Origin: an uncultured Candidatus Saccharibacteria bacterium
GTDB lineage: Bacteria > Patescibacteriota > Minisyncoccia > Phycocordibacterales > Zambryskibacteraceae
Length of the DNA: 51,168 nucleotides
Reading direction: 5' to 3'
NCBI GenBank assembly: GCA_964342515.1
Contig: CAYFFP010000001.1
Span: 25,036-76,203, forward strand
The notes beneath the pieces were generated by a model. The model was not told the DNA's origin and did no database searches. It saw only the letters and a list, made by a program, of their open reading frames with translations. Numbering within the stretch: the first letter of the stretch is position 1; each line of letters begins with the position of its first letter. Shown here in pieces: positions 744 through 50,377 of this stretch. Position numbers and translations under genes: made by a program.

Positions 744-745
744 AT

Positions 746-4709: not shown

Positions 4710-4711
4710 AT

Positions 4712-7042: not shown

Positions 7043-7071
7043 GTGGCTTCGCAGAAATGTGAAGACACTAC

Positions 7072-7100: not shown

Positions 7101-7187
7101 ACGTGAGTCGCGTGATGAGCAAAGTCCCGTGAAGTTTACTTTTTACGGGACGTAGCGAATTTTACGCGACAGCGTTAGAATGAAATT

Positions 7188-7442: not shown

Positions 7443-7455
7443 ACCTGATATACTT

Positions 7456-8244: not shown

Positions 8245-8368
8245 TTCTGGTTCTAGCATTATTTACTATCTGAGTTGACAGAAAATGCCTATCTGATAGT
8301 CTATATATACAAATGCCTTCGGGCCGGCCCTGCTTTGCAGGGACAAAGTCGGGAGAAACAAAAAGCCG

Positions 8369-8797
8369 TCAAAAGAGTAAATCTTTGATGGCTTTTTGTA
8401 TTTTGGCGAAAGTATCTTTATCTAAGGTGCTGATTTGTTTGTATAGACGCTTCGTATCAATCAACCGAATTTGTGAAATGATAGCGGCGGCTTTTTTACC
8501 ATCTACAATACCAACGGGCATGTAGTATTTATTATCCTTAATTGTGGTTGTAAGAGGAACAATAACACAAACATTTCGGCTTAACCCTTTCATAATTAAA
8601 ACTGGCCTAGAGAATCCCTTGCCTGTTCCGTCCTGTTCAAAGCCGACATTTACTCCTAATCTGCACCAACGAATCTGTCTTTCATGGTAAAGAGGCAAGT
8701 AATCTTCAAGCCCATCTATTTCCTTCTTGCGTTTATTCCAGCTATCAAAATCTTTCTTCATTTCTTCCAGCGCCTTAGCCCGCGCTTCGTTTTGCAA
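8369..8797 (-). CDS. PemK/MazF-family toxin (endoribonuclease fold), no adjacent antitoxin seen
   Basis: RQIRWCRLGVNVGFEQDG...FSRPVLIM...VIVPLTT...AIISQIRLIDTKRL. A more likely start is the ATG at 8761 (MKKDFDSW). Confidence 0.7.
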   Translation of the reverse strand: MQNEARAKALEEMKKDFDSWNKRKKEIDGLEDYLPLYHERQIRWCRLGVNVGFEQDGTGKGFSRPVLIMKGLSRNVCVIVPLTTTIKDNKYYMPVGIVDGKKAAAIISQIRLIDTKRLYKQISTLDKDTFAKIQKAIKDLLF

Positions 8798-8841
8798 AAG
8801 GACATAAATTTCTATAAGATTAAAGCCGTTATTTTCTATTT

Positions 8842-8913
8842 GCCGGAGTAGTTCAGTGGTAGAACGTTACCATGGTAAGGTAAAAGTCGGGAGTCCGATT
8901 CTCCCCTCCGGCT
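8842..8913 (+). tRNA. tRNA-Thr (anticodon GGT)
   Basis: Manual cloverleaf: acceptor GCCGGAG/CTCCGGC, D arm GTTC-AGTGGTA-GAAC, anticodon arm TTACC-ATGGTAA-GGTAA, T arm GGGAG-TCCGATT-CTCCC. Confidence 0.85.
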
Positions 8914-8980
8914 CAAGATGCAACCTTTTGTCATTTCTAAGAGTTGTAATAAGTGCAAGGGTCGATATTATGAGACAATA

Positions 8981-9009
8981 ATGGAATCCCGCCAAAGGCG
9001 GGGTTCCAT
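8981..9009. repeat. GC-rich hairpin ATGGAATCCCGCC-AAA-GGCGGGGTTCCAT, arms resemble the PPAGG palindrome
   Basis: 13-bp stem with one T-G pair, 10 nt upstream of the ECF sigma ATG. Arms AATCC(C)GCCA / GGCGGGGTT compare with AATCCGCCA / TGGCGGA. Confidence 0.5.
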
Positions 9010-17600: not shown

Positions 17601-20600
17601 TCTTGGGCCACGGCGCGGGACATACTCTGCGAGAGATGCTTACCATCAAGTCCGATGACATTCTCGGCAGGTCGGCCGCCTTCGACGCCATTGTCAAGGG
17701 CGACAAAATTCCGGAACCCAATCTGCCCGCGTCCTTTAACGTGCTCCTGAACAACTTGCGCGGCCTCTCGCTTGATATAGAACTGGAAAAGGGCAAGCCG
17801 GATAATATTAATAAAAATATGATCAGTAATTACAGAACCGCTCCGGGAAATAAGGATTTCGAAGCCATCTCCATTAAGTTGGCCAGTCCCGAGCGCATCA
17901 AAGAATGGTCCTACGGCGAAGTGACCAAGCCCGAGACTATCAACTACCGGACGCAGCGAAGCGAAAGAAACGGTCTCTTCGACGAGAAAATCTTCGGACC
18001 AGACAAAGATTTCGAGTGCTACTGCGGCAAGTACCGAGGCGTCCGCTACAAGGGCATTGTTTGCGAGAAATGCGGCGTCGAGATTACCCGCTCCATCGTG
18101 AGGCGCGAACGGATGGGCCACATAGAGCTCGCCAGTCCCGTCGCCCACATCTGGTTTTTGAAAAACGTGCCCTCGAGGATTTCTCTCATCATGGGCATTC
18201 CGGTCGTCGACTTGGAGAAGGTTGTCTACTTTGCCGGTTATATCATCACTTCGGTAGAGATTTCCGAGAAGGAGAAGGTGCTTAAGGACTTGGACTCCGA
18301 GTTCAAGAACAAGATTAAAGGTCTTCAGGACGAGAAGAGCAAAGCCGCTCTCAAAGAGTTGGCCCTTGCCACTAAGAAGGACATCGAAGCGCTGGTGCCG
18401 GGCAAAGTCTTAAATGAAGTCGAGTATCACCGCGCTTCTCTTAAATATCCGACAATTTTTGAAGCCGGCATCGGGGCCGAAGCGGTCTACAATATCCTTA
18501 AAGACACCGACATGCATAAGTTGAAGGAGAAGCTTACGGCGGAGCTTGAGAAGGCGCCGTCCACTGAAATCCCCCGCATCAATAAGCGCCTCTCAACCCT
18601 ACAGTGGATGATTAATGCCGGCACCCGTCCCGAATGGATGTTCCTCATCCGCGTGCCGGTTATTCCGCCCGCCATCCGCCCGATGGTTCCACTCGACGGC
18701 GGCCGTTACGCCACCTCCGATGTCAACGATTTGTATCGCCGCGTCATCAACAGGAATAACCGGTTAAAGAAACTTAAGGAAATCAATGCTCCGGATGTCA
18801 TCCTCCGGAACGAGAAAAGAATTTTACAAGAAGCCGTAGACGCTCTCATCGACAATACCATCCGCCACGGCGGCGCCTCCGGCAGTCAGGCGTTGAGAAG
18901 GCCGCTGAAATCTCTCTCCGATAACCTCAAGGGCAAGCGCGGCCTCTTCCGCCAGAATCTTTTGGGCAAGCGCGTCGACTATTCCGGCCGCTCCGTTATC
19001 GTCGTCGGTCCGGAATTGAAGCTCCACCAGTGCGGCCTGCCCAAACACATGGCCTTGGAACTCTTCAAACCCTTTATCATCAGCGAGCTTTTGAAGCGTG
19101 AGCTTGCCTTCAACATCCCCGGCGCCAAGCGCCTTATCGAGGACGCCGTGCCGGAAGTCTGGGCCATCCTTGAGGAAGAAATCTCCGGCAAATACGTGCT
19201 CTTAAACCGCGCCCCGACGCTCCACCGACTCGGTATCCAAGCCTTCCAGCCGGTGCTTATCGAGGGCAATGCCATCCAGCTTCACCCCTTGGTCTGCACC
19301 GCCTTCAACGCCGACTTCGACGGCGACATGATGGCCGTGCATGTGCCACTCTCGGAGGAAGCGCAAGCCGAGGCGCGCCTTATCATGGCCGCGGACAAAA
19401 ATATCTTGAAGCCCGGCAACGGCGAGCCGATAGTTTCTCCGAGACAAGACGTTGTGCTCGGCACTTACTGGATGACTCGCCTCAAGCCTAATGCCAAAGG
19501 GGAGGGCAAATATTTCTCTTCGCCAAATAGCGCCATATTGGCCTTCGACTTCGATGTCGTCGATATGCGCGCCAAGGTCCATGTGCTTCCTTCAGAGACG
19601 GAGCGCTACAAGCAATTCGATGGGAAGGTCTTCGAAACTACGGTTGGCAGGTTGCTCTTCAATTCAGTATTGCCCAAGGATTATCCTTATATCAATAGGG
19701 AGGTTGGGCGCAAGAAAATGTCAGAATTGATCGACGACCTCTTGGAAAAATATGGAATAGAAAACATTCCGGCAATCATCGATAAAATTAAATCTTTCGG
19801 TTTCCGCTACGCTACCTATTCCGGTATTACTTGGAGCTTGGGAGACGTAAAGATTCCTAAAGGCAAAGACGCATTGATTGAAAAGGGCCGCCAGCAAGTC
19901 ACGCAAATATTCAATCAATATCAAGAGGGCCTTCTCTCAGAGAGCGAACGCATCGTCCGCTCCGTCGAGATTTGGCAGGGCGTAAAATTAGAAATAGAAA
20001 AAATAATGCCGGGAGCGCTAGAAACGACCAATCCTATTTACGACATTATTCATTCCGAAGCCCGCGGCTCGTTCGGCAACCTGAACCAGATGGCGGGCAT
20101 GAAGGGTATTATTGTGGATGTTTCCGGCGAGACTCTCGAATTCCCGATTACTTCAAACTATAAAGAAGGCCTCACCCCGCTCGAATATTTCATCACCACC
20201 CACGGCTCGAGGAAGGGTTTGACGGACACGGCTCTTAACACCGCCAAAGCGGGCTACCTTACCCGCCGCCTCTTCGACGTGGCGCAGGATGAAATTATTA
20301 CCGAAGATGATTGCGGCGCGAAAGAAGGCATCCTCATCCACAAAAAGGCCGCCTCGGGCATAGAGATTCCGCTGTCGAAAAATATTAAAGGGCGCTTTTT
20401 GGCGGCTGATCTTCTCGACAATAGTGGACAAGTTCTCTTCAAAAAATGGCATTTCATCACTCCGGCCGACGCCGCTCTGATAGATAAATCGGCAGTCGAA
20501 GCCGTTAATGTCCGCTCTCCCTTGGGCTGCAGATCCACTCAAGGACTCTGTGTCAAATGCTACGGCACCGACCTTGGCAACAATAAAGTAGTCGAGCTGG

Positions 20601-21472
20601 GCGAGGCCGTCGGTACTGTGGCCGCGCAGGCCATCGGCGAGCCGGGCACCCAGCTTACCATGCGCACCTTCCACGCCGGAGGCGTGGCGGCCGCCTCGGG
20701 CGACATTACCGCCGGACTGCCGCGCGTGGAGGAAATCTTCGAGAAGAGGAAACCCAAGATTCCGGCTATAGTCAGCCACTTGGACGGGGTCGTGACGGAA
20801 ATCAAAGTGGTTGGTCACGACAGAATTATCGTAGTGGCGCCTGAGGCGGGCGAGGTTAAAGGCAAAAAGTTGGATAATGAATATACAGTACCCGCCTCTC
20901 GTGCCTCGCTCATACATATCGGGCAAGGAGTAAAGAAGGGCGATATCTTGACTGACGGTTCGGCGGACCTTGACGAACTCTTCCGCTACGCCGGCAGAGA
21001 AAAGACGGAGAATTATATTATTCACGAAGTCTCCAAGCTTTACGAGCTTCAAGGCGCCGCCGTCGCCCACAAGCACATCGAGCTTATCGTCCGCCAGATG
21101 TTTAGCAGGAGAAAGATTAAAGATCCGGGTAATTCGAAGTTTACTCGCGGCGATGTCGTTGAAGTTTCGGAATTGACCGAGATTAATAACAAGTTAAAGG
21201 AAAGCGGCGGAGAGGAAGCTAAAAGCGATGTCGCCATTATGGGTATTACCGAAGTCTCGCTGTCGAGGGCGTCATTCCTATCGGCGGCTTCCTTCCAGCA
21301 TACGCCAAGAGTCTTGATCCAAGCCGCCATTAAAGGCGTCAAGGATGAGCTGGTCGGTCTTAAAGAGAATGTCATCATCGGACGGCTGATCCCTGCCGGC
21401 ACGGGCTTTAAGGGAGGATACAAGGAGAAGCTCATATGCGAGGCAATGCTCAAACAGTCAAAGAGCGGCTAG
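14654..21472 (+). CDS. rpoBC: Fused DNA-directed RNA polymerase beta-beta' subunit (single 2272-aa ORF)
   Basis: Beta motifs: GRHGNKGV, RMNLGQILE, GGQRFGEMEVWAL. A linker ...ELEKGKPDNINKN-MISNYRTAPGNK... follows. Beta' motifs: CYCGKYRGVRYKGIVCEKCGVE, NADFDGD, and the G-loop/trigger-loop region. Confidence 0.9.
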   Translation: MQKKYFGRFREPLAKMPNLVVSQVESFKWLIERGLKEVFEEFSSIKDFSEKKFQLDFVGFELAEPKIGEFQAKERKLSYEASLKVRVRLKNHIQKSEKEQEIFMADLPLMTSHGTFIISGIERVIVPQLARSTGVSFTGQEIKGKKTFGAKIIPGRGAWIEMETDFDGTIYVRIDRKRKFPVTTLLRSFGAIGNDKIHALFAPMPQAKLYIDKTLAKDHTISADEAAIEIHRRLRDGDLASAENAREFVKLIFDKERYDLSRVGRFRFNNRFGLKVKGSEIERRTLSLDDLVLIISHIVKLNTTPDALADDIDHLGSRRVRFVGELFQMNIRKGMAQIKRNIQNRMSTIDTDVTLPVQFISPKPLQARIKEFFTTNQLSQFMQQINALEELEHLRTVSALGPGGLNRARAGYEVRDVHPSHYGRLCPIQTPEGPNIGLILRQSCYARVNDFGMIETPYAVVENGKITGEIKYLNALEEESFNIAHAATEVKDDVLVPSVVEVRHKGTPTTVPSSLVNFIDVATNQAFSVATSMIPFLNHDDANRALMGSNMQKQATPCILPEVPLVATGVEETAIRDTGRVLFSPVDGKVDEVDAKLIKVRDNKDKVHEFPLVNFSMTNGFTVHHQRPSVELGAKVKKGSVLADTSSSESGQMAVGQNVLVAFMSWSGANYEDAIIISERLLEKSKFANVHIEEFEVAVRDTKLGPEMTTCDIPNVGESKLKNLAEDGIIRVGAEVRPGDILVGKITPKGESQLTPEERLLRSLFGEKARDVKDTSKRMEGGKRGRVISVQVFSREKGDKLDSGILKRIHIQVAQLRNVSVGDKLAGRHGNKGVISRILPVEDMPYMADGTPIDVLLTPLGVPSRMNLGQILEMHLGLAANALNYQAIVPPFAGASEEEIKEELVKAGIPENGKVKLYDGRTGEPFDQDIAIGCMYILKLHHMVEDKIHMRSIGPYSLITQQPLGGKAQNGGQRFGEMEVWALLGHGAGHTLREMLTIKSDDILGRSAAFDAIVKGDKIPEPNLPASFNVLLNNLRGLSLDIELEKGKPDNINKNMISNYRTAPGNKDFEAISIKLASPERIKEWSYGEVTKPETINYRTQRSERNGLFDEKIFGPDKDFECYCGKYRGVRYKGIVCEKCGVEITRSIVRRERMGHIELASPVAHIWFLKNVPSRISLIMGIPVVDLEKVVYFAGYIITSVEISEKEKVLKDLDSEFKNKIKGLQDEKSKAALKELALATKKDIEALVPGKVLNEVEYHRASLKYPTIFEAGIGAEAVYNILKDTDMHKLKEKLTAELEKAPSTEIPRINKRLSTLQWMINAGTRPEWMFLIRVPVIPPAIRPMVPLDGGRYATSDVNDLYRRVINRNNRLKKLKEINAPDVILRNEKRILQEAVDALIDNTIRHGGASGSQALRRPLKSLSDNLKGKRGLFRQNLLGKRVDYSGRSVIVVGPELKLHQCGLPKHMALELFKPFIISELLKRELAFNIPGAKRLIEDAVPEVWAILEEEISGKYVLLNRAPTLHRLGIQAFQPVLIEGNAIQLHPLVCTAFNADFDGDMMAVHVPLSEEAQAEARLIMAADKNILKPGNGEPIVSPRQDVVLGTYWMTRLKPNAKGEGKYFSSPNSAILAFDFDVVDMRAKVHVLPSETERYKQFDGKVFETTVGRLLFNSVLPKDYPYINREVGRKKMSELIDDLLEKYGIENIPAIIDKIKSFGFRYATYSGITWSLGDVKIPKGKDALIEKGRQQVTQIFNQYQEGLLSESERIVRSVEIWQGVKLEIEKIMPGALETTNPIYDIIHSEARGSFGNLNQMAGMKGIIVDVSGETLEFPITSNYKEGLTPLEYFITTHGSRKGLTDTALNTAKAGYLTRRLFDVAQDEIITEDDCGAKEGILIHKKAASGIEIPLSKNIKGRFLAADLLDNSGQVLFKKWHFITPADAALIDKSAVEAVNVRSPLGCRSTQGLCVKCYGTDLGNNKVVELGEAVGTVAAQAIGEPGTQLTMRTFHAGGVAAASGDITAGLPRVEEIFEKRKPKIPAIVSHLDGVVTEIKVVGHDRIIVVAPEAGEVKGKKLDNEYTVPASRASLIHIGQGVKKGDILTDGSADLDELFRYAGREKTENYIIHEVSKLYELQGAAVAHKHIELIVRQMFSRRKIKDPGNSKFTRGDVVEVSELTEINNKLKESGGEEAKSDVAIMGITEVSLSRASFLSAASFQHTPRVLIQAAIKGVKDELVGLKENVIIGRLIPAGTGFKGGYKEKLICEAMLKQSKSG

Positions 21473-29977: not shown

Positions 29978-30601
29978 TTAATACAGCAGTATAAGCGCGA
30001 GTGCCGCCATCCCAAAATCCTCGATGATAGTTATTTTTGTAAGAGGAACCTTGAGGAAAGTGCCGAGGCATGCGCATTGAAACTCCTCGCCTCTGGCCAA
30101 TTTAACAGCAACTCCTATGCCGCTAAAAGTCATTACGACAACCTCTGCCCAAAGAAGAGAGGGGTCGTGGAAACCTAGAAGCATGGCAAGACCAAACCCC
30201 AACTCTATGAACGGATACGCGTAGCCGTAACCAAACCATTTTTGCGCCAGCAGGTCATACGTCGAGTATCCTTCGGCAAAACCTTTAAGGTCCATCAATT
30301 TAAAGCCGGCAAAAACTATGAAAAACCCGATCATAAAGTAGATGATCGAGTTCTCTACATTGAACCCACCTCGTGAGTAGTCAGCGACACTCAAAACCGC
30401 CGACACCAGCAGTAAGAGAGAAATAATCACGATTAGGGGTACGTAATTTCTCCATGTCAGCAAGCCCAATCCTCGATCTTCTGTCTCGTGGACTCTTTTT
30501 GGCGCTTCGTTCTTGAGTGCAAGCGCCATACCGCACCTCGGGCATTGACCCGGGCCACCCTGTGTTATCTCCGGATGCATTGGACAAGTGTATTTATTCA
30601 T
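29978..30601 (-). CDS. Membrane protein: N-terminal CPMHPE-type metal-binding Zn-ribbon plus MauE/DoxX-like domain
   Basis: [24 protein letters not shown], then four TM helices with [14 protein letters not shown]. Confidence 0.6.
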
Positions 30602-31142
30602 ATCTTAATTCAATCTTATCGCCATCCTTCATCTCATAATTTCCAAGTTCGGTATTATCAAAGCCATTAACGACCATTCTTAGGTTAGAGCCGAAGGAGT
30701 TCATATCTTTACCCCAACTCTTAAATAGCTGTTCAAGCCTAATATCGTCTTTACGAACAATACTGCTAAACTCTAAGTGAACCACACCATTTGCCGCATC
30801 ATCGTGAGTATGAACGGGCGCCATTCCCATTGGTAAAGACGAGTATTGAGGGCCTATGCCAATGTTCGCAGGAATAGCTTGTTTCTCATTCTTAACATAG
30901 ATAGTTAGTACGGGATGCCAATGAAGACCATTTCTTGAAATAATTTCTGGGTCACTCTTCTGCAAGCTCTTAGACCACCAAATACTTCCTCCGAAGAGAA
31001 TAACGATAATACCAACAATAAGAAGAGCATTTTTCATAGTTATCTGCTCCCCAAGTATAGCATTGATATACCCCTGTTCTTTAGCAAAGAATATATGCAA
31101 CCCCGAACCAAAGCAGAGTTTGGTACGGGGCAGGCCCGACAT
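30594..31142 (-). CDS. Membrane-anchored His-rich periplasmic protein (likely start ATG 31037)
   Basis: [17 protein letters not shown] anchor; HWHP...APVHTHDD motifs suggest metal binding. Overlaps the upstream gene by 8 nt. Confidence 0.5.
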
Positions 31143-31175
31143 TATTTTTAGGGTAATTGAGAAATCGCATAAATC

Positions 31176-31421
31176 GTGCTAATATACGTCTATACACATA
31201 TGAAAACTATTGCCCAGTTTAAGATTACTCGAGACAAGGATGCCTACATTGCCGAAGGGGTGGATTTGGCTATTGTTACCCAAGCCAAAGATTTGGATAG
31301 TCTTGTGAAGAATATCGAGGAAGCAGTTTCTCTGCATCTTGAGGACGAAAACATCAAAGATTTTGATTTCTCCCAGAAACCTTCTATTTTAGTGAATTTC
31401 GAGTTGTCGCAATATGCCTAA
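31176..31421 (+). CDS. hicB: HicB-family antitoxin
   Basis: YIAEGVDLAIVTQAKDLDSLVKNIEEAVSLHLE. Overlaps hicA by 8 nt. Confidence 0.6.
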   Translation: MLIYVYTHMKTIAQFKITRDKDAYIAEGVDLAIVTQAKDLDSLVKNIEEAVSLHLEDENIKDFDFSQKPSILVNFELSQYA

Positions 31422-31656
31422 GCTGAAGACTTTGAGTTCAGAGGACATTATCTCTGCACTCAAGAATTTCGGCTTTCAAGTTGTTGGTCAAAGAGGTAGT
31501 CATGTCAAACTCTCAAGGCAGACCTCTGTCCAAAAACAAGTTCTGACTATTCCCAACGAAAAGAATCTTCCGAAAGGCACGACAAAGGCGATATTCAATC
31601 AGGCCAGCAGATTTGTCTCTCAAGAAGAGTTGAAGAAATATTTTTATATCGATTAG
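31414..31656 (+). CDS. hicA: HicA-family mRNA interferase toxin
   Basis: SSEDIISALKNFGFQVVGQRGSHVKLSR...TIPNEKNLPKGT. Confidence 0.8.
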   Translation: MPKLKTLSSEDIISALKNFGFQVVGQRGSHVKLSRQTSVQKQVLTIPNEKNLPKGTTKAIFNQASRFVSQEELKKYFYID

Positions 31657-31676
31657 GTTCTATTAAGGCCTTAAAT

Positions 31677-31750
31677 GCTCCCGTGGTTGAATACGTTAAG
31701 AACTCTGAATTGGTCCAATATAGCACGGGAATTAGAGTTTAGCGGTTTAT
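31677..31750 (-). repeat. Pseudo-tRNA-like repeat, copy 1 (right part only)
   Basis: ~85% identical to 33809..33885. Begins at the stop codon of the amine-oxidase gene. Confidence 0.7.
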
Positions 31751-33048
31751 TAAAAATGTATTATTTGTCTTGCCACTTCTAATCCACTAGCCAGTGCTCC
31801 TTCGACAGTTGCCGTCTCTGTTTCTTTATAAAGAGCTTCACCAGCAAAGAAGATCTTATTTTCAACAGGTTCTCTCAATTTAGCGTATGCTTTCTCTGAA
31901 TTAGCCATACTATAACTATATGCACCTTTGGTAAAAGGGTCGGCTGGCCAGTTTACAACTTGATAAGTTACCACTTTTTCTTTAATAAAGTCTTTATCTG
32001 CTTTCCAGATGTCAGACAACGAAGAAAGACATAGGTTAAAAATCTCTTTCTCGGATTCGTGCTTTAATTTTTCTGCCTCTGGCCCCGCGATCCACCCTGT
32101 CAGAACTGGATATTGTTCTGGGTATTGTGTCCACCACGCATTTACTTTACCGTTGCAAAGCATAAATACCATCTTGTTAATATTTTTATGTTGACTGTTG
32201 CTTGTCCACCATTGGTCCTTAAATTTAATAAGAATTTTAATAACTTGACCGAAACCTATTTTATCAATCGCTTCAATTTTCTCATGAATAGTAGGACTGA
32301 ATTTTATATTTTTAATAATTGGTAAAGCCACGGTAACAATGACTCGTTGTCCATTATATAAATTGCCGTCTGTGCATAATACATTTATAGTATCGTTATC
32401 TATTTTTACAGATTTTACCTCCTTATTAGTTAATAGTTCTACGCTATATTTTTTACATTCTGAAACTAGGAAATTAATCATTGGCCCATATCCCTCTTTT
32501 ATCCTTCCTTGTTTCCATTCAGTTTGCCCAAGCCACTCTTCTTTAAGAGAAAAAGTGCTTATTTTATGGGGATCAGCGGCGTCAAACCCTTTCACCATAT
32601 TATTTATCACATTCACAAGCCTGCTATATTTTTCATCAGAAAAGTATTTTTCTAAGAAGGTTGAAATAGGAATGTCATCTACCAGCTCATTTAATCTTTC
32701 GTTTATTATTTCTCTATATTTTATAAATTCAGGGTCTTCAGTAAATAAATAAGCCTTCTTCAATTCGTTACCATCGAAAGACCACATTTCTCCGTCTTCA
32801 GGCATGGAAACATAATTCAAACCAGCTTCACGAAGTAATGACTTGGTTAATGGTGCCTCTCCGTGAATGAATTCTGCTCCACCTTGCGCCGGATAACCAA
32901 ACTCTTCTTCGTCAAGAGGGAAAATTCTTCCTCCCACCCTATCTATGGCTTCAAGAATTATTACTTTTTTCCCGGCTTTAGCTAGTTCTCTTGCCACCAT
33001 TAAACCTGTTGCCCCAGCACCTATAACTATAATTTCTGCTTTTTCCAT
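31750..33048 (-). CDS. Flavin-containing amine oxidase / NAD(P)/FAD-dependent oxidoreductase
   Basis: IIVIGAGATGLMVARELAKAGKKVIILEAIDRVGGRI dinucleotide-binding motif; C-terminal FFAGEA...ATVEGAL. Confidence 0.8.
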   Translation of the reverse strand: MEKAEIIVIGAGATGLMVARELAKAGKKVIILEAIDRVGGRIFPLDEEEFGYPAQGGAEFIHGEAPLTKSLLREAGLNYVSMPEDGEMWSFDGNELKKAYLFTEDPEFIKYREIINERLNELVDDIPISTFLEKYFSDEKYSRLVNVINNMVKGFDAADPHKISTFSLKEEWLGQTEWKQGRIKEGYGPMINFLVSECKKYSVELLTNKEVKSVKIDNDTINVLCTDGNLYNGQRVIVTVALPIIKNIKFSPTIHEKIEAIDKIGFGQVIKILIKFKDQWWTSNSQHKNINKMVFMLCNGKVNAWWTQYPEQYPVLTGWIAGPEAEKLKHESEKEIFNLCLSSLSDIWKADKDFIKEKVVTYQVVNWPADPFTKGAYSYSMANSEKAYAKLREPVENKIFFAGEALYKETETATVEGALASGLEVARQIIHF

Positions 33049-33081
33049 AAACTTCAGCTAAATAATCATCAATTATTAGTT

Positions 33082-33636
33082 CTACAATTTATCTACTTGA
33101 AACGGTATTAAATCTGACTCTGCAAATAGCCTTGATTTTGAGGATTTTATTAATCCGATAGAAGGGTTGGTTGCGAAACCTATGTATTCTACCTGTTTAT
33201 TTTTACCATTTCGCACATATTGAATTGCTGGTATCAAATCGGTATCAGAACTCACTATAATGGCTGTATCGTATAAATTATCCACAGCACCGATAACCAG
33301 ATCTACAGATAATTTAACATCCACACCCTTTTCCCTAATTCTTTTTCCGTCATACATAATACGTCCACGTTTTATAACAAATCCTTCGTTTTCTAAACCA
33401 CTTAGAAATTTTTGCTGGCTTTTGACCATTTCCTCACTCTTCTTAGAGTTATCGTGATTTTTTACAATACCAACATAGTATCTCTTTGATATAAGCTCTC
33501 TTTCTCCAACTAGATGACTAACGAAAGCGGAGTAATCAAATCTCTTATCTTGTTTAGGTATACCCAACTCCTTAAGTTTTCTATAAGTATTGCCTCCATC
33601 TATATAAACTACGACTTTTTCTTTGCCGAATAACAT
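33082..33636 (-). CDS. NYN/LabA-like PIN-fold RNase domain protein
   Basis: VVVYIDGGN..., GVDVKLSVDLV, AIIVSSDTDLIPAIQYV. Confidence 0.8.
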   Translation of the reverse strand: MLFGKEKVVVYIDGGNTYRKLKELGIPKQDKRFDYSAFVSHLVGERELISKRYYVGIVKNHDNSKKSEEMVKSQQKFLSGLENEGFVIKRGRIMYDGKRIREKGVDVKLSVDLVIGAVDNLYDTAIIVSSDTDLIPAIQYVRNGKNKQVEYIGFATNPSIGLIKSSKSRLFAESDLIPFQVDKL

Positions 33637-33660
33637 AACTAGACTTTAACATAAAACAAA

Positions 33661-33688
33661 CCACCTCTGCCCGTGAAGGCAGAGGTGG
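33661..33688 (-). terminator. Intrinsic terminator (minus strand) after the EEP operon and repeat copy 2
   Basis: CCACCTCTGCC-n6-GGCAGAGGTGG, followed on the minus strand by TTTGTTTTAT. Confidence 0.6.
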
Positions 33689-33722
33689 TGCTGTTAGTGC
33701 TTATTAATATACATGTTTCAAA

Positions 33723-33885
33723 TTAAAAATCAATGAAATATGTTAATAAGTTCTGAACCCTATTTTTGGTTATAAAAATTAGCGGCTTAACGAAGCCATA
33801 TTTTCAGGGCTCCCGTGGTTGGATACGTTAAGAACTCTGAATTGGAAAAATATAGCACGGGAGCTTGAGTTTAGTGGGTTAATAA
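33723..33885 (-). repeat. Composite repeat copy 2: pseudo-tRNA part (33809-33885) plus tRNA-Asn downstream-flank part (33723-33808)
   Basis: The left part aligns with 35532..35618 and the right part with 31677..31750. Begins at the EEP stop codon. Confidence 0.75.
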
Positions 33886-33887
33886 AT

Positions 33888-34628
33888 TTAATTAAAATCT
33901 AAGTACATGGCTAAATGGTCAGAAACTTCATCTGGTAATACCTGGAAATCATTAACCTTTATATCTTTACTGACTAGAGTATAGTCAGCAAAACGAACTG
34001 ATTTTGTGTAGTGGCTAGACCTCGTTGAGGTAATACCAAATTCTTTAATAAGATTTCTCATACCTAAATCTTCCAACATTTTCAAACTCTTAGTTTCTGG
34101 AAGTAGGTTGAAGTCGCCCATAAGCACATGGTGGTGTGAAATTCCTTTTAAGAACTTGGCAATCCTGTCTGATTGAATTAACCTCTCTTCGGTATCTTCT
34201 TTAGGACCACCGTTCCACAAACCATGAAAATTTAGAATTGTCCTAGGGCCTTTGGGTGTCTCTATGGTTGTATATTGAAGATTTCTGGCATGATTAGCAT
34301 GAAATTCTTGATGCACCCAGCCTACATCTTTATGAACAAAAATGTCTCCCTCTTCAAGAGCATTGAGGTCTTTCTTAACAAACATAGCTAGACCATACCA
34401 ATCGTGATAATGTGGGCGAAAGAATATTGAATGCTCCGTTAATATATTCCCGATATTAGTAAGCATTCTTGTATCTATCCCTTCTCCCCATTTAGGGGCT
34501 TCATCATCTCCACCTTCCCAGATTTCTTGAAGGCAGAAAACATCAATATCCTTGTGCTTACGAAAAAAATCCAAGAGATTATCCTTTCCAGCTCTTCCGC
34601 CCCAAGTATTTAGCGAAATCAGCCTCAT
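33888..34628 (-). CDS. Endonuclease/exonuclease/phosphatase (EEP) family protein
   Basis: LISLNTWGG, FCLQEI, GDFN, SDHLAMYLDF. Confidence 0.8.
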   Translation of the reverse strand: MRLISLNTWGGRAGKDNLLDFFRKHKDIDVFCLQEIWEGGDDEAPKWGEGIDTRMLTNIGNILTEHSIFFRPHYHDWYGLAMFVKKDLNALEEGDIFVHKDVGWVHQEFHANHARNLQYTTIETPKGPRTILNFHGLWNGGPKEDTEERLIQSDRIAKFLKGISHHHVLMGDFNLLPETKSLKMLEDLGMRNLIKEFGITSTRSSHYTKSVRFADYTLVSKDIKVNDFQVLPDEVSDHLAMYLDFN

Positions 34629-34900
34629 TATTTCAGTGAGATTACCTGCAACCCTTTCTTATCTATATCTTCTTTAGGCCAGAATTTAGTTAAATCATCT
34701 ATCTTCCACTTTCCTACATATCCAACCTTTCTTTCTAATTCTCTTCCTGTGTAGGCCTTTGTGTATGGATTCCACTCTTTCAAAACTAAGGTGTCTCCTT
34801 CGTCTATGTCAAAATCATTCAGTCTTAACTCAAAAGTCTTTTTGCCATCTAGAATTTCTTGAAAGTATTCAGACCATACTTTCTTTTCAACTGTTTTCAT
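34628..34900 (-). CDS. ASCH/DUF3850-like small RNA-binding-fold protein
   Basis: YFQEILDGKKTFELRLNDFDIDEGDTLVLKEW...YTGRELERKVGYV. Confidence 0.65.
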   Translation of the reverse strand: MKTVEKKVWSEYFQEILDGKKTFELRLNDFDIDEGDTLVLKEWNPYTKAYTGRELERKVGYVGKWKIDDLTKFWPKEDIDKKGLQVISLK

Positions 34901-34942
34901 ATGGGAAGTATAACAAAAATGGTGTAAGATATCTCCATTATT

Positions 34943-35419
34943 ATGGGCTTTTTATCTAGATATAAACGCGAAAAGCAAAAAGCGGAAGATTTCTATAAAA
35001 CTATAGATAAGGTTAAATGTCCTTATTTTGAGACCGATATCACTTTTAATGCTGATGGATTTCATCACCTCCAGTTTTCTGCGGAACGCGAACGGCCAAA
35101 GCAAGAGCAACTTCTGAAATTCAGTCTTTTACCCGCAATTCCACATATCTTAAAGAAAGCCGGGACAATTCAAGAGTATAGACGCACAATGGAACCAGTG
35201 GGTCAAAAGAGATTTTCTGATGGCGCTAAAGAAATGAAAGAAATTGAATATTGGGGAATAGTTGCTATCACAAAAAGTGAAAAACCGATAAGAATCAAGA
35301 TTATTTTGCGTAGAGTTGGTAACGGAAGTATAATTTTTTGGAGTGTAATGCCAACAGTGAAATTGAAAGATGGTGACTCGTATTTATATTTAGCTACTCC
35401 AAATATTGCTGAAGAATAA
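34943..35419 (+). CDS. Hypothetical 158-aa protein
   Basis: ORF with plausible composition (FNADGFHHLQF...IIFWSVMP); family not recognised. Confidence 0.45.
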   Translation: MGFLSRYKREKQKAEDFYKTIDKVKCPYFETDITFNADGFHHLQFSAERERPKQEQLLKFSLLPAIPHILKKAGTIQEYRRTMEPVGQKRFSDGAKEMKEIEYWGIVAITKSEKPIRIKIILRRVGNGSIIFWSVMPTVKLKDGDSYLYLATPNIAEE

Positions 35420-35531
35420 CGACAAAGCCCCTGATAAACAGGGGCTCTCTCGAGTGTCTGCCTTCAGCTTAATTTATTAGCTGAACGGGGCTTGCGCCCA
35501 CAGACACACTTTGACTATACCTAATCGTAAG

Positions 35532-35618
35532 TTAAAAATCAATGAAAATATGTTAATAAGTTCCGAACTCTATTTAGGTTGCAAAGTTTAGTGGCTCAAC
35601 AAAGCCATATTTTCGGGG
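35532..35618 (-). repeat. Repeat copy 3: authentic downstream flank of tRNA-Asn
   Basis: ~85% identical to 33723..33808 and contiguous with the tRNA-Asn 3' end. Confidence 0.75.
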
Positions 35619-35691
35619 CTCCGCGAGCAGGGATCGAACCTGCGACATCCTCGTTAACAGCGAGGCGCTCTGCCGACTGAGCTATCGCGGA
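35619..35691 (-). tRNA. tRNA-Asn (anticodon GTT)
   Basis: Acceptor TCCGCGA/TCGCGGA, D arm GCTC-AGTCGGCA-GAGC, anticodon arm CCTCG-CTGTTAA-CGAGG, T arm GCAGG-TTCGATC-CCTGC. Confidence 0.9.
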
Positions 35692-35747
35692 ATATTGGGA
35701 AATGATACCAAAAAGAGGGGATTAGACAAATTTGTTATAATAAGTTT

Positions 35748-36125
35748 ATGAAAATCAACATCAAGGCGACTAATATCACGCTTACTCCAGCCATCTCCGA
35801 TTACGTTAATAAGAAAATTTCCGCTCTTGAGAAATATTTTCAACAAAGTCCCGACGCGGTGGCGCACGTAGAGGTGGGGCGCATCACCCGTCACCACAAG
35901 ACGGGGGAGATTTTCCGCGCCGAGGTACATGTCATCGGGGCGGGGCTCGATGTCTATGCCGACTCGGAACAGGCGGACCTCTACGCCGCCATAGACTTGG
36001 CCAAGGATGAACTCATCAGAAACACTCTACAGGGTAAGGATAAGCGCGCCACACTTGCCCGCCGCGGAGCGGAGATGGTGAAAAATATGATGAAAGGGTT
36101 TAGAATATTTAAGAAAAGACCATAA
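35748..36125 (+). CDS. hpf: Ribosome hibernation promoting factor / RaiA family (short form)
   Basis: MKINIKATNITLTPAISDYVNKKISALEKYF...AEVHV...DLYAAIDLAKDEL. Confidence 0.8.
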   Translation: MKINIKATNITLTPAISDYVNKKISALEKYFQQSPDAVAHVEVGRITRHHKTGEIFRAEVHVIGAGLDVYADSEQADLYAAIDLAKDELIRNTLQGKDKRATLARRGAEMVKNMMKGFRIFKKRP

Positions 36126-36298
36126 TGGATTTTTACTGGAGACAGAAAGCGAACATGTGGGTTACCGCCTCGGTTCTAGCCGGAGGATTGGTGTCGGCAA
36201 TAATCCTCTTTTTCTTGGCGCGATTGGAGAATCGCCTAGAGGCTAGTTACCTCGCAGAAAGTCCCGCCAATTCATCTCTCGTTTTCCCGCAGGAGTAA
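36125..36298 (+). CDS. 57-aa single-TM small ORF coupled to hpf (TAATG)
   Basis: MDFYWRQKANMWVTASVLAGGLVSAIILFFLARLENRL... Would overlap the convergent def-fmt 3' end by 56 nt. Confidence 0.25.
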   Translation: MDFYWRQKANMWVTASVLAGGLVSAIILFFLARLENRLEASYLAESPANSSLVFPQE

Positions 36299-37463
36299 CT
36301 CTGGTAGGTACAAATTTCCCATCTTCGATTTTGGCATCATTTACTGCGATTCTTAGTTCTTTACCCATTTTATTTTTGAAAAAGAAATAAGCGCCGGGCC
36401 ATCTACTGTAAGCGAGGACCTTTCTTAAATTCTTTTCCGCATCATCATTCAAATCAAGAAGCCCATCCTCCTTCTTCACCAATTTGCAATAAGTAGCTAA
36501 TGAGTCGTCTTGAGGAGTAGGTGTCGGCAAATTCGGGAGGATTTTTGCCAGAAGTCTGCCACCGGCGCGGGCCAATTTCTCTTCCACTTTCGCGTAATGG
36601 TCCGGCCATGGCTCTATAAAAACCTTTTCTTGCGCCAGTATTGGTCCGTGGTCCATTTTCTCGTCCATTTTTATGATAGTGACACCGGGCTGCTTGTTCT
36701 CTAGGATTAAATTTTGAATAGGGGAAGAGCCCCGCAACTCAGGCAACAACGACGGATGCGCGTTAAGAAATCCGCGTCTTGGAATTTCTAAATATTCTTT
36801 AGGCAAGATTTTCCCGAACGACGCGACTATGCCGAAATCAATATCTTTTGGAAATTTGGGGAGGGGTGCTTTCGCGTCGGTAACTTTCAGAACGGGAGAA
36901 AACCCGGCACTTTCCAACTCTTCCAGTACAAATTCCGAGAATTTAGAACCTTGCCTGCCGGCAGGCAGGCTACCGAAGAAGACGAACGAAGCGGCTGGGG
37001 GGAGATTCCTCACATTCTTCGCTTTATCGGTAAAGAGTATGCCGTTTAAGTGGTCTATCTCGTGCTGTATTATCTGGGCAAGGAGGCCGGAGGCGCCAAT
37101 GGTAACCGACTTACCGGCATCGTTATAAGCTTTTATCGTCACTTTCTCATGGCGGAGCACTTCTCCGTAAAGCCATCTTACGGACAGACAGCCCTCCTCC
37201 ATCTTCCTCTTCTTCTTGGAAGTTTTGACGATTTCCGGATTGATGAAGACTAGGTCAGCACTTTCTCTCTTTACCATAAAAATCCGGAGGCTAGCGCCGA
37301 TTTGCGGCGCGGCAATAGCCACCCCGTCCTTTTCGGCATGTAAAGCCCTCTTCATCTTAGCGACAATGTCTCTTATTTTTTTAGAACCAATATCTTCGAG
37401 AGGCACTGCCTCGGCAGTTTGCCTCAAAACTGGACTCTCTTTGTCTACTAATAGTTTCTTCAT
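36243..37463 (-). CDS. def-fmt: Fusion of peptide deformylase (N-terminal) and a shortened methionyl-tRNA formyltransferase (C-terminal)
   Basis: Def motifs GVAIAAPQIG, EGCLSV, QHEIDHLNG. Then the Fmt part: VFFGS..SKFSEFVLEEL, NAHPSLLPELRGSSPIQ, GVTIIKMDEKMDHGPIL. ATGA overlap with the priA stop. Confidence 0.8.
   Translation of the reverse strand: MKKLLVDKESPVLRQTAEAVPLEDIGSKKIRDIVAKMKRALHAEKDGVAIAAPQIGASLRIFMVKRESADLVFINPEIVKTSKKKRKMEEGCLSVRWLYGEVLRHEKVTIKAYNDAGKSVTIGASGLLAQIIQHEIDHLNGILFTDKAKNVRNLPPAASFVFFGSLPAGRQGSKFSEFVLEELESAGFSPVLKVTDAKAPLPKFPKDIDFGIVASFGKILPKEYLEIPRRGFLNAHPSLLPELRGSSPIQNLILENKQPGVTIIKMDEKMDHGPILAQEKVFIEPWPDHYAKVEEKLARAGGRLLAKILPNLPTPTPQDDSLATYCKLVKKEDGLLDLNDDAEKNLRKVLAYSRWPGAYFFFKNKMGKELRIAVNDAKIEDGKFVPTRVTPAGKREMNWRDFLRGN
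36952..36967. repeat. 16-bp perfect palindrome TGCCTGCCGGCAGGCA (read as LPAGRQ in the Fmt N-terminal motif)
   Basis: Exact self-complementary 16-mer inside the FFGS[LPAGRQG]SKF segment. Confidence 0.9.
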
Positions 37464-48043: not shown

Positions 48044-48088
48044 TGGTGGACCCGACCCGATTCGAACGGGCGACCTCCTCATTGCAAA
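48044..48088 (-). other. 3' fragment of a tRNA-Ala(TGC) gene (anticodon loop to CCA): putative att site of the adjacent element
   Basis: The minus strand reads TTTGCAA-TGAGG-AGGTC-GCCCG-TTCGAAT-CGGGT-CGGGTCC-A-CCA. No matching 5' half lies upstream. Confidence 0.6.
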
Positions 48089-48272
48089 GAAATAAGTACC
48101 CTTATTTCTCTTGAAATATCCTTAATTTAAGGGGTAAAATCGTGATTCTGATCCTCAAATTCATACTATTGCAATGACCTGTTTCCTGCCTAGGAAAGTC
48201 CATGAAATAATTAGCTGCAACAGACTGCAAATTAACTAATAATCTCTACTCAATTGTACAAAATAGTCAGGC

Positions 48273-49370
48273 CTATATCAAGTTTTCAAATGTCATAATT
48301 TTCATCTCCGACTCCAAATCATCCGATGACAATGAGCGAAGATACACTTGAGTCATTCTTATATCTTTATGACCAAGAAGTCTTGAGATTTTTATCAGAC
48401 TGACTCCTTTTTCGGCGAGGTTTACAGCAAAGGTGTGACGAAATCTATGCAAATGGAATTTCACTCCAGATAGTCTTTCTAATCTCTTAACCCAATGCTT
48501 CAGTCCTTCAGCACTTATTCCTTTGTCGGTATTTAGAGAAACAAATAATTGCGGGGTTTTATAACTTTTCCTCTGGTCTAAATAATCTTGCAAAGCCATT
48601 GCTAATAATATATTAGTAATCGGCAAAATTCGATCACGTCCTGATTTTGATGTTTCGCCCCTAACTGTCAATTTCCTTTTTTCCAAGTTGATATCGGTCA
48701 CTTTCAAGCCAAGTAATTCGCTCTTTCGAATCCCACAAAACAGAAGCACAGCGAGCATTGCTCGATCCCTTTTTCTCTGCAACAAGGTGGTTGAATGGTT
48801 TTCAATAGCTGTCCTGATATGCTCGATATCCCCTTTACGCAAGGCCCTTTTGTCATCATAGGTTGGTTTGAATTTAGGCAGTTTTTTTATTGGATTTTCA
48901 ATAATATGTTTCTCTTGAACCAGCCACTCAAAAAACACATTCAACTTCATGGCATATGTCGCTACAGTCGAAAACTTAACGCCAGTTTTCTCAATTCCTT
49001 TTCCGACAATTCTAGTCCGAGTTTGCATTTCCTTGAAAAAATTAGTCAACGATTCCGTAGTCAGTAAATCGATTGTGACGTAAGAGAGTTTCCTGAAAAG
49101 ATCATACGACGCTTTATACCCAATTAAAGTGGCGGGGCGAAGTAGCGTTACATATTTCTTTTCCTCTATAAACTTATTGAAGAGTTCGTCTAGTTTGTCT
49201 GGAGTGGACATCTCTCTTGTTTTGCCGGTTTCCTTATCGGAACGCCCTAAAGACAAAGGACCAAGCGTTTTTCTGCATTCTTCTGGGGTTACGCCGTATG
49301 ATTCCATCACCGAGACTTCGTCGTACACAAACAATGAAATTGTATTGTGCTCCATGGTTAATGTATTCAT
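48273..49370 (-). CDS. Tyrosine recombinase / phage-type integrase
   Basis: C-terminal catalytic region GIRKSELLGL..., HRFRHTFAVNLAEKGVSL, LLGHKDIRMTQVYL. Confidence 0.85.
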   Translation of the reverse strand: MNTLTMEHNTISLFVYDEVSVMESYGVTPEECRKTLGPLSLGRSDKETGKTREMSTPDKLDELFNKFIEEKKYVTLLRPATLIGYKASYDLFRKLSYVTIDLLTTESLTNFFKEMQTRTRIVGKGIEKTGVKFSTVATYAMKLNVFFEWLVQEKHIIENPIKKLPKFKPTYDDKRALRKGDIEHIRTAIENHSTTLLQRKRDRAMLAVLLFCGIRKSELLGLKVTDINLEKRKLTVRGETSKSGRDRILPITNILLAMALQDYLDQRKSYKTPQLFVSLNTDKGISAEGLKHWVKRLERLSGVKFHLHRFRHTFAVNLAEKGVSLIKISRLLGHKDIRMTQVYLRSLSSDDLESEMKIMTFENLI

Positions 49371-50377
49371 ACCTTCTTACTAGACGGTAAGACTACCTGC
49401 TCAGTTCCTATTCTTTTTACTTGAGGATTCCCATTAAGATAATTTTGAAGATAAGCCACGAAACCTTGAATATCTCTGATCATAAACGGGCGATGGAAGT
49501 TATCAAGACTTGTTAATGGATGCTTATCTAACGAGTCCATTAACTCAACAATTTTTTCTGAAACAAGTTTAACTGCGTTCGCCGGTTCTTTTACTCTTTC
49601 ATTTTCATCCAGAACAATTCTGTTTATTCTGTTTGAAGCTTCAACCGACGAAAGTCCTTCATAATTTTGTTTGAGTAATTTCTCGGCATTATATGTTTCC
49701 CCATATCTATCTGCTCTTCGTAAAGCTTTGGCTAATTCAGAAACTATGTCCCTGGGAATAGTTTTTTGTTCAACAATTAGTTTTCTAAAGCCTCGTCTGT
49801 ATTTTTCTGGAGCTTCCTTGACTAATGGAACTTTTGCCTTGGAAAATTCAGGATCATTTAACGCTTCTTTCATTTCTTTAGTTTCTCCCAAGAGAGCCAG
49901 GTACTCCGAGATGGTACTTTCCGGCATACCAAGAAGTTTGTGGAGTTCTCTTACGCCGGGCTGACCATGCCGGAACCCACCATGGCCTTTCTTGACTTCT
50001 GCCGCCGAACTCAAGATTTTTTTCCTTATTTTATCTAGCATCATCGCCGTATCTAAGGGAGACATCTTTTCTTGGTGAATATTCTCTATCGCCTGTCGGA
50101 TGAATCTATCATCATCACTAATATCAAGGATTCTAACTGGGACTACTTTTAATCCGGCAATCTTCGCGGCTCTCCACCTACGTTCTCCGGTAATGATTAC
50201 AAAGTTCTTATCTATCTCGATGGGATAGATGATTCCGGCAGTAACAATGCTTTGGGCTAATTCTTTTAAATTCTCTTCGTTTCTAGATTGGCGTGGCTGA
50301 TTTGTATCTGCTTTTATTTTGTCTATTTCAACTTCAGTGATTTTCATGATATTTCTTAGTAAATTGAGTAAAGTCAT
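49367..50377 (-). CDS. ParB/Srx N-terminal-domain protein
   Basis: PRQSRNEENLKELAQSI...IITGERRWRAAKIAGL. 4-nt overlap with the integrase gene. Confidence 0.7.
   Translation of the reverse strand: MTLLNLLRNIMKITEVEIDKIKADTNQPRQSRNEENLKELAQSIVTAGIIYPIEIDKNFVIITGERRWRAAKIAGLKVVPVRILDISDDDRFIRQAIENIHQEKMSPLDTAMMLDKIRKKILSSAAEVKKGHGGFRHGQPGVRELHKLLGMPESTISEYLALLGETKEMKEALNDPEFSKAKVPLVKEAPEKYRRGFRKLIVEQKTIPRDIVSELAKALRRADRYGETYNAEKLLKQNYEGLSSVEASNRINRIVLDENERVKEPANAVKLVSEKIVELMDSLDKHPLTSLDNFHRPFMIRDIQGFVAYLQNYLNGNPQVKRIGTEQVVLPSSKKV

Follow-up and report, generated by a model that had tools for sequence, protein, structure and literature searches.

A composite island of small integrase-less modules at a patescibacterial tRNA-Asn gene, separated by repeats that resemble the ends of large serine recombinase genes

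Layout of the tRNA-Asn island

The 51,168-nt stretch of DNA analyzed here, hereafter the window, belongs to an uncultured bacterium deposited as Candidatus Saccharibacteria and placed by GTDB in the Zambryskibacteraceae of the Patescibacteriota (assembly GCA_964342515.1, contig CAYFFP010000001.1, positions 25,036 to 76,203 of the forward strand). Within it, the 4.6 kb from a tRNA-Asn gene (35.6 kb) to a conserved gene for a 147-aa protein (31.04 kb) form a composite island made up of three small modules, none of which carries an integrase. The island has a GC content of 34-39% (31-35 kb), compared with 45-47% in the DNA on either side, and the same strain with the same island is present in two ENA assemblies. 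Four copies of the pentanucleotide GGAGC, which we call cores (35618-35622, 33809-33813, 31677-31681 and 31046-31050), delimit the three recombinase-less modules, and two kinds of longer repeat, termed the flank and the mini-element, adjoin them. The features, from the tRNA gene to the conserved gene, are as follows.

35616-35692 by ARAGORN, 35619-35691 by Rfam RF00005 (69.2 bits), minus strand: intact tRNA-Asn(GTT)
35618-35622, minus strand: core 0, GGAGC; last acceptor bases, discriminator and next base; similarity to copy 2 starts here
35529-35617, plus strand: flank copy 1, 83.5% identical to 33720-33808 (nhmmer E=5e-24)
33814-35617: module A, with genes for a 158-aa protein, an ASCH protein and an EEP-family protein
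34943-35419, plus strand: 158-aa protein, module A cargo
34628-34900, minus strand: ASCH/DUF3850 protein, module A cargo (Pfam DUF3850 1.1e-18)
33888-34628, minus strand: endonuclease/exonuclease/phosphatase (EEP) family protein, module A cargo (Pfam Exo_endo_phos 7.8e-19)
33809-33889, plus strand: mini-element copy 2 (LPWLDTLRTLNWKNIARELEFSGLINL), core GCTCC at 33809-33813
33720-33808, plus strand: flank copy 2, with an in-frame stop inside; left arm of an attP-like junction
33660-33689, minus strand: intrinsic-terminator-like hairpin, 13 pairs and a T-run, between flank copy 2 and the NYN gene
31682-33808: module B, with NYN and amine oxidase genes
33082-33636, minus strand: NYN-domain (RNase-like) protein, module B cargo (Pfam NYN 4.2e-20)
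31750-33048, minus strand: flavin amine oxidase, module B cargo (Pfam Amino_oxidase 5.1e-59)
31677-31757, plus strand: mini-element copy 3 (MLPWLNTLRTLNWSNIARELEFSGLL...), attR-type junction; similarity ends at core GCTCC 31677-31681
31051-31676: module C, with HicAB
31176/31200-31421 and 31414-31656, plus strand: HicB-like antitoxin and HicA toxin, module C cargo (Pfam HicA_toxin 3.6e-14)
31046-31052, minus strand: core 3 relic GGGGAGC (GGAGC 31046-31050), 8 nt upstream of the ATG of the 147-aa gene
30594-31037, minus strand: conserved 147-aa gene, B' side of attB, 73% aa identity to L006:8513-8956

A previous sequence-only reading of this region had recognized much of the repeat anatomy. The minus-strand tRNA-Asn that it described was confirmed by both ARAGORN and Rfam, and the duplication of the tRNA's 3' flank was reproduced, with 35529-35617 and 33720-33808 identical at 76 of 91 aligned columns (83.5%), with two 1-nt indels; read on the plus strand, flank copy 1 is directed towards tRNA-Asn. 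The mini-element likewise recurs as described, its 78 nt at 33809-33886 and 31677-31754 sharing 87% identity. A 21-nt mini-element core occurs exactly twice in the window (0 expected), and no mini-element beyond copies 2 and 3 was found there. Both copies abut or overlap the ends of the upstream open reading frames (ORFs), at 33888 for the EEP gene and 31750 for the amine oxidase gene, and a strong terminator-like hairpin does lie at 33660-33689 on the minus strand. Alignment of the copies located the core: copies 1 and 2 are similar from GGAGC for about 90 nt, and copy 3 loses similarity at GGAGC. The island holds no intact integrase gene, again as had been claimed. Instead of the two modules originally counted, however, three were found, the third being HicAB, with a further core relic, GGGGAGC, at 31046-31052. 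Assignment of this module to HicA systems follows from a toxin domain and an overlapping small upstream partner ORF (73-81 aa), both of which are present; the upstream HicB-like ORF had no Pfam antitoxin match.

Empty sites and exchange at the GGAGC core

Relatives of the bacterium preserve the uninterrupted site. In three lineages (L006, L032-L035 and L036) the tRNA-Asn gene ends in ...GCGGAGC, and the start codon of the 147-aa gene follows 6-27 nt further on, indicating that everything from 31.05 to 35.6 kb in the window is an insertion. The GGGGAGC relic of the window holds the place that the tRNA-Asn 3' end (GCGGAGC) occupies in the empty sites, and HicAB is missing from them. Measured against this empty attB (the attachment, or att, site of the host), the window contains hybrid junctions of the attL/attR kind, namely tRNA with flank, mini-element with flank, mini-element with unrelated DNA, and the core relic. 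The 3' end of the tRNA-Asn gene is the attB-side half of the attL junction. Module-less sites were thus found when synteny at tRNA-Asn was compared among relatives, and these sites in three lineages, together with the cargo swaps between strains at GGAGC described below, support the earlier proposal of serial insertions at tRNA-Asn that left att scars.

Further copies of the mini-element were gathered by a 20-nt scan of metagenomes and by a protein route. The family extends to 13 further contigs (L013, L014, L016-L020 and L027-L031, plus L037, in which the corresponding sequence lies in frame within an integrase ORF), while two of the four metagenome matches, L012 and L015, were set aside because the 20-mer occurs in them by chance, within sequence that is otherwise unrelated. 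The 20-nt mini-element core had no match in IMG/VR. Another tRNA-Asn, in L014, is followed about 780 bp downstream by a mini-element that has the same orientation and ends in CGGGAGC like that tRNA.

Comparison of closely related contigs revealed break points at the core itself. L016 and L017 share identical DNA, including a LigT gene and its flank, as far as GGAGC, beyond which both the mini-element variants and the genes differ, the cargo consisting of DUF3800 and a restriction-modification gene in L016 versus MFS in L017. The converse is seen in L027 and L029, which encode an identical 147-aa protein and have identical DNA from GGAGC through the 168-aa and 147-aa genes, and which differ upstream of GGAGC in mini-element variant and in cargo (DoxX versus DUF3800). 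The mini-element variant of L016b and L029 accompanies a block with DUF3800, SpoVG, HTH_17 and a type IIG restriction-modification gene. The L016 LigT module is a single gene of 750 bp bounded by flank and mini-element, and three flank copies start at the same base though the neighboring DNA differs. L016 also carries the 158-aa gene (92% identical), a hairpin and the flank, and then a mini-element where the window has the tRNA, indicating that flank and mini-element are parts of two different modules, which meet at the core.

Several observations made on these contigs stand apart from the break points. L016 2141-8044 and L029 1-5353 represent a larger element that ends in its own mini-element variant and sits at two different junctions; its cargo comprises DUF3800, SpoVG, several unknown proteins, HTH_17 and a type IIG enzyme (HSDR_N_2 + N6_Mtase + Eco57I), and both contigs end within the restriction-modification gene. 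Upstream of the cargo adjacent to the mini-element in L027, an AT-rich intergenic region contains GC-rich nested inverted repeats at 6380-6560 (CCAACGGCTCAACTAGTTGAGCCGTTGGGAGC..., GCGCGCCGAAGGCGCGC). In the window, a long, GC-rich compound hairpin (GTGTCTG...CAGACAC around CCTTCAGC...GCTGAACGG) lies at 35421-35500, downstream of the 158-aa gene, and is also kept in L016 at 1112-1200; it may be a bidirectional terminator.

Identity of the repeats

The sequence-only reading took the mini-elements for eroded copies of tRNA-Asn, acting either as partial-tRNA att repeats or as tRNA-like hairpins in the 3' untranslated region that direct processing by RNase P/Z. Mini-elements and tRNA do have GGAGC in common, extended to CGGGAGC in L014, and a weak T-arm-like motif can be seen in the mini-elements. 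However, the Rfam RF00005 covariance model found nothing in 31000-36000 at E<=10 except the real tRNA-Asn, which was also the only tRNA called there by ARAGORN, the mini-elements being left uncalled. Seven family members aligned locally to the tRNA-Asn of the window gave p=0.42-1.0, like two tRNA-Thr controls, and p=0.46-0.98 when the last 9 nt were removed. Of the claimed likeness between the mini-element and tRNA 3' ends, then, the terminal GGAGC stands, and the body is no closer to tRNA-Asn than to tRNA-Thr. TTAACG, thought to have been retained from the tRNA, is not conserved in the family (variants TGAAT, TGAAC and TAAAC).

The structural side of this explanation fared similarly. The 9-bp complementary arms reported earlier (GCTCCCGTG/CACGGGAGC) are present in copy 2, where they form an acceptor-like stem, and this copy folds better than shuffled sequence (z=-2.9); the stem of copy 3, by contrast, has 8 pairs, one of them G-U, and that copy folds as shuffled sequence does (z=0.07). 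Over ten aligned mini-element copies RNAalifold returned no consensus structure, and the 9-bp stem was paired in 77% of cells without covariation, its one-sided C-to-T changes amounting to synonymous codon changes on the opposite strand. The 5' arm is wholly missing in L014. The position of the mini-elements, directly after stop codons and upstream of the terminator, would suit a processing signal, but the analysis gave no support for such a hairpin, with no tRNA-like fold, consensus structure or stem covariation found. Together with the codon-structured variation and the homology to integrase C-termini described next, these results largely refute derivation from tRNA-Asn, and we regard it as extremely improbable. 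They also carry a caution for annotation, in that repeats beside a tRNA that look tRNA-like by eye can be integrase-gene fragments.

What the mini-elements do conserve is a reading frame. On the opposite strand, a frame that begins one base into GCTCC is open in all ten copies of a codon alignment from which L020 (23-nt insertion) and L014 were excluded, and it encodes the peptide LPWL[DN]TLRTLNWxxIARELEFSG[IL]L, hereafter the tail. The differences between copies are codon-like (CGG/CGA/AGA, CTT/CTC/TTA, GAG/GAA, AGT/AGC, GGG/GGT/GGC), pN/pS is 0.42 in this frame, the lowest of the six, and its BLOSUM sum-of-pairs score (z=5.9) was exceeded by none of 1000 column shuffles.

The mini-element peptide had no match in Pfam, and a word-indexed search of 5.8 billion proteins returned only four short ORFs. 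The resulting view that the peptide had no parent gene was overturned by an index-free HMMER scan with a profile of the tail, which recovered 97 representative proteins, with the motif C-terminal in longer ORFs. Protein P0261 by itself matched nothing in Pfam, NCBIfam, PDB or a phage tblastn search; recombinase domains were found once the DNA upstream of it in contig L037 was translated. The order in L037 is DPFYCG...GKHEPLIS...ELF, a Cys-rich ribbon, a long helical region, and then ...SHPV-MLPWLDEFRTLDW.... This tail-bearing ORF matches Pfam Recombinase (26.4 bits, cut-off 21.1) and Zn_ribbon_recom (30.7 bits, cut-off 25.3), with both domains directly upstream of the tail and in frame, and its top PDB match is the A118 serine integrase. 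Four other fragments that bear the tail (P0285, P0262, P0260 and P0334) align to the C-terminal region of L037 with E=4e-22 to 8e-10. A more distant recombinase ORF, the second of its kind, was seen in L019 (Zn_ribbon_recom 2.4e-8), where it enters the core at the position of the window's flank; the L019 tail follows in another frame than this ORF, which makes the junction a hybrid between two subtypes of the element.

The homology of the tail to the C-termini of large serine recombinases (LSRs) identifies the mini-element as the end of an LSR gene, with the core inside the ORF. As judged from sequence, the mini-element is a relic of the last ~27 codons of such a gene and would form the right arm of attP, the attachment site of the element. 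The flank is probably the pseudogenised stretch of ~30 codons before the core in the same integrase gene, now interrupted by stops, and the left attP arm. Its homolog in L016 is open in frame into the tail peptide (P0002), reading MLISPEPYLDHKNKWLKIKLKSL and then LPWL, and a comparable stretch in L037 reads LILEPENILTNKRQKSTFVLSHPVM and then LPWL, a putative homology. On this evidence the mini-elements, and probably the flanks, are pieces of an integrase gene and not of a tRNA.

Alternatively, the mini-element could encode a functional protein of its own, of 27-40 aa, such as a regulatory or DNA-binding micro-protein carried antisense to the cargo in each module. The open frame and the purifying-selection-like variation would be expected of such a gene, and an ATG, GTG or TTG immediately precedes the first conserved codon in 7 of 11 copies, but this start is missing in copy 2, L019a, L027 and L029. 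Gene callers do report such ORFs in several metagenomes, whereas their C-terminal ends are not conserved and they have no consistent ribosome-binding site. The same peptide is, moreover, the in-frame end of longer recombinase ORFs, from which the coding signature would have been inherited. A free-standing micro-protein is in our judgment very unlikely.

Proposed mechanism and comparison with known systems

The identification of the repeats as LSR gene ends leads to a reading of the whole island that we consider probable: the modules descend from LSR-family integrative elements of Paceibacteria-type candidate phyla radiation (CPR) bacteria, which inserted at the 3' end of tRNA-Asn and carried their attP core inside the integrase ORF. 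The site of crossover, which reads GCTCC on the strand of the integrase gene and GGAGC at the end of the tRNA, would lie ~27-35 codons before the stop codon, and a core so placed means that integration would split the integrase gene. After integration, the gene body would stand next to the tRNA and read towards it, with the last ~27 codons placed at the element's opposite end. The window would since have lost the integrase bodies by deletion, keeping per core the ~90 nt of flank and ~80 nt of mini-element. The flank with the tRNA would then represent attL, the mini-element with the flank an attP-like junction of the tandem modules A and B, and the mini-element with unrelated DNA attR. We infer both the catalysis of the insertions by an LSR and this order of events.

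The geometry of the half-sites offers a comparison with characterized enzymes. In LSR sites, the motif bound by the zinc-ribbon domain (ZD) lies 5 bp further out in attP than in attB, and the recombinase-domain motif is unmoved (PMC3783163). Counting from the G of GCTCC, with motifs picked by eye, all five tRNA-Asn antisense strands have a TTCGAACC-like motif, corresponding to the T-arm read in antisense, that begins at +16, and TT[CTA]AGAAC begins at +20 in all 11 mini-elements; GAAC is at +19 in the tRNAs versus +24 in the mini-elements, and GG.T.GGA is at +9 in both. This arrangement, in motifs chosen by eye, fits the 5-bp outward ZD shift and is suggestive of LSR sites. The shared half-site motifs would also explain why the mini-element looks faintly like a tRNA.

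Several points weigh against descent from tRNA-Asn-targeting LSR elements. The overall similarity of the mini-element half-site to the tRNA has p~0.12, the common core is only 5 bp, and six junctions scanned for inverted-repeat symmetry around the core, an attP being expected to form an imperfect dyad of ~50 bp about a central dinucleotide, did no better than shuffles, although read by eye copy 2 contains a 13-nt imperfect inverted repeat (10/13 matching). The L027 lineage has no tRNA-Asn within 8 kb upstream of its mini-element, and at the end of module C a sensitive nhmmer search found no diverged mini-element, the 5-7-nt relic standing there alone. No intact LSR with both catalytic domain and tail was found: contig L037 is 1.26 kb long and has an in-frame stop, L019 is the C-terminal half alone, and the window contains no serine recombinase. 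Contigs cut short or truncated genes would account for the lack of a visible catalytic domain. Nor is the tail exclusive to integrases, since a 225-aa viral ORF (L038 5713-6390, IMG/VR UViG_3300009537_000070) joins a GIY-YIG nuclease to the C-terminal module of this serine recombinase family, complete with the tail LPWLDALGTLNWGSIKSELQFSGI; a homing endonuclease may here have reused the module as a portable DNA-binding domain. Finally, canonical LSRs recombine only attP with attB and not attP with attL or attR, so that a tandem array is not their expected product. The array would require a relaxed enzyme of the Ccr/TnpX type (Ccr being itself an LSR), insertion of a multimer, or homologous recombination between relics.

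It is conceivable that the modules are live cassettes, in which the ~170-bp sites formed by flank and mini-element remain functional and are moved in trans by a serine recombinase encoded elsewhere, in the cell, a phage or a plasmid. This explanation overlaps with descent from LSR elements and differs from it only on present-day activity. It would account for arms kept at 83-87% identity between modules with unrelated cargo, for three flank copies that begin at the same base despite differing neighbors, for close strains that differ by whole cargo blocks exactly at the core, and for the one-gene LigT module of L016 with a repeat at either end; contigs also break frequently near such loci, consistent with population heterogeneity. 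The window, however, was found to contain no recombinase for these sites, and copy 2 has no start codon and the flanks have stops, so nothing would be expressed from the relics themselves. The modules of the window are carried by same-strain contigs alone, in which their movement was not seen. We regard present mobility of the modules as possible but unlikely. A bolder form of the idea, to which we give a similarly low standing, is that Paceibacteria-type CPR bacteria possess an active cassette-exchange platform at tRNA-Asn, resembling those of SCC elements or integrons, in which an LSR acts in trans and bears its own attP in its 3' coding end, and the relics serve as portable sites mobilising modules of 0.6-2 kb. 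If so, integration would swap the last ~30 residues of the LSR for a short antisense-tRNA tail, which could switch its activity or directionality, and mobilisable modules without an integrase would carry RNA-repair, defense and toxin-antitoxin genes.

Other candidates for the enzyme or system behind the island were considered and rejected. An IS200/IS605-style model, with an HUH transposase and a pentanucleotide target, was suggested by the 5-nt core and the small hairpin in the flank, but the 158-aa protein has no HUH motif, Y1_Tnp match or PDB fold match. Neither is this protein a plausible recombinase of another kind, because relatives ~80% identical to it occur in unrelated contexts without flank or mini-element nearby, and it is therefore treated as cargo. 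Its AlphaFold2 (AF2) model has a pLDDT of 80, there was no PDB fold match, and a weak LPD3 match was the only one in Pfam. The family itself is Patescibacteria-wide and strongly conserved (433 homologs), with invariant residues that include DGFHHLQFS, ER, KF, GT.QEYR and FWSVM, and its gene often stands beside tRNA genes, as between tRNA-Lys and tRNA-Leu in L026. The only tyrosine recombinase of the window (48273-49370) is part of another element; it lies 12.6 kb away with no flank or mini-element nearby and with its own tRNA 3'-half fragment adjacent. An integron/attC interpretation was dismissed as well, there being no IntI, no boxes and no conserved structure, with sequence rather than structure conserved.

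That second element was noted in its own right, along with other features outside the island. At 48046-48090 on the reverse strand lies the 3' half of a tRNA ending in CCA (...TTGCAAT...GCCCGTTCGAATCGGGTCGGGTCCACCA) with a Cys(GCA)-like anticodon loop, uncalled by ARAGORN and Rfam, ~180 bp from the 3' end of the tyrosine integrase gene (Phage_integrase 1.1e-31), after which a ParB_N protein is encoded; in this region (48046-48090 and 48273-50377) the GC content falls from 0.58 to 0.38. It has the look of an att end belonging to a classical integrative element that targets a tRNA and continues beyond the right end of the window. Adjoining the island, at 36243-37463 (minus strand), a single 406-aa ORF combines peptide deformylase with methionyl-tRNA formyltransferase (Def-Fmt). 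Its product shares 60-64% identity with proteins from metagenome-assembled genomes of Zambryskibacteria and Minisyncoccia, in keeping with a genome close to Candidatus Zambryskibacteria; the fusion is kept in Zambryskibacteria and Nomurabacteria relatives (414-436 aa), and the genes are separate in L036. A MazF/PemK toxin gene (8369-8797, minus strand) adjoins tRNA-Thr (8842-8914) at the edge of a low-GC block (0.34-0.40; 1-9000) that encodes a series of membrane-type proteins with zinc ribbons, along with a trypsin-like protease and several family-less proteins; a further tRNA-linked island may be present here. A 2272-aa ORF (14654-21472, plus strand) lies where the window is richest in GC (0.52-0.58).

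The tRNA-Asn island represents a known general type of integration hotspot, and the family that built it is apparently undescribed: our literature searches turned up no account of elements like these in Patescibacteria. Little has been written on the mobile elements of CPR/Patescibacteria, whose genomes are tiny, or on how these bacteria exchange genes; at this hotspot, nuclease, RNA-repair, restriction-modification and toxin-antitoxin modules are swapped between close strains at a 5-bp core. The tail peptide LP[LW][LV]D.FRT[LA]NW..IK.ELQFSGIL (97 protein clusters) provides a tag with which such islands and their integrases can be sought in metagenomes. An attP inside the integrase ORF would be unusual for a serine integrase, and the enzyme, if active, would be a tRNA-targeting LSR with defined sites of ~50 bp, of the type sought by genome-engineering screens.

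Known systems share parts of this architecture. Like integron cassettes, the island is an array of small units, mostly of one or two genes, with a conserved site-like repeat just after the stop codon and a content that varies between strains; unlike integrons, it has no IntI, no R''/R' boxes (RYYYAAC/GTTRRRY) and no conserved hairpin, its repeat being conserved in sequence and structured by codons. With the sites of phage LSRs (A118/LI, Bxb1 and phiC31) the family has in common the Recombinase and zinc-ribbon domains, a short core, and a distal ZD-like motif whose distance from the core is 4-5 bp greater in attP than in attB, with the proximal register kept. In those phages, attP lies beside the int gene and is not known to lie inside it, and the island differs further in its tandem arrays and in a site symmetry that is not significant. 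Archaeal integrases of the SSV1 type do have attP inside int, so that integration partitions the gene and its fragments mark the ends of the element next to the tRNA. These enzymes, however, are tyrosine recombinases, split near the N-terminus, with an att of ~44 bp identical to the tRNA, whereas here a serine recombinase would lose just its last ~30 residues.

The tycheposons of Prochlorococcus are tRNA-linked islands in which new elements at the tRNA push older ones inward, leaving degenerate remnants and att motifs (bioRxiv 10.1101/2020.12.28.424599). Our island resembles these and other tRNA-linked islands in its hypervariability, its small adaptive cargo modules and its repeated att motifs; it differs in that 5 nt of the tRNA are repeated and LSR fragments are associated, instead of the real partial-tRNA repeats and tyrosine recombinases of tycheposons. 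Another architectural analogy is offered by the composite islands of staphylococcal cassette chromosome (SCC) elements, where tandem elements accumulate at the 3' end of a conserved gene, separated by short direct repeats, and include pseudo-SCC elements without a recombinase (PMC6243372). By this analogy the tRNA-Asn island is an SCC-like composite island, with cassettes stacked at the 3' end of one gene, site repeats between them, and recombinase-less elements carrying accessory and defense genes. Where SCC elements target rlmH/orfX, the target here is a tRNA, the modules measure 0.6-2.1 kb and the host is a CPR bacterium; and the att core of the island would lie inside the integrase ORF, so that its repeats are pieces of the integrase gene.

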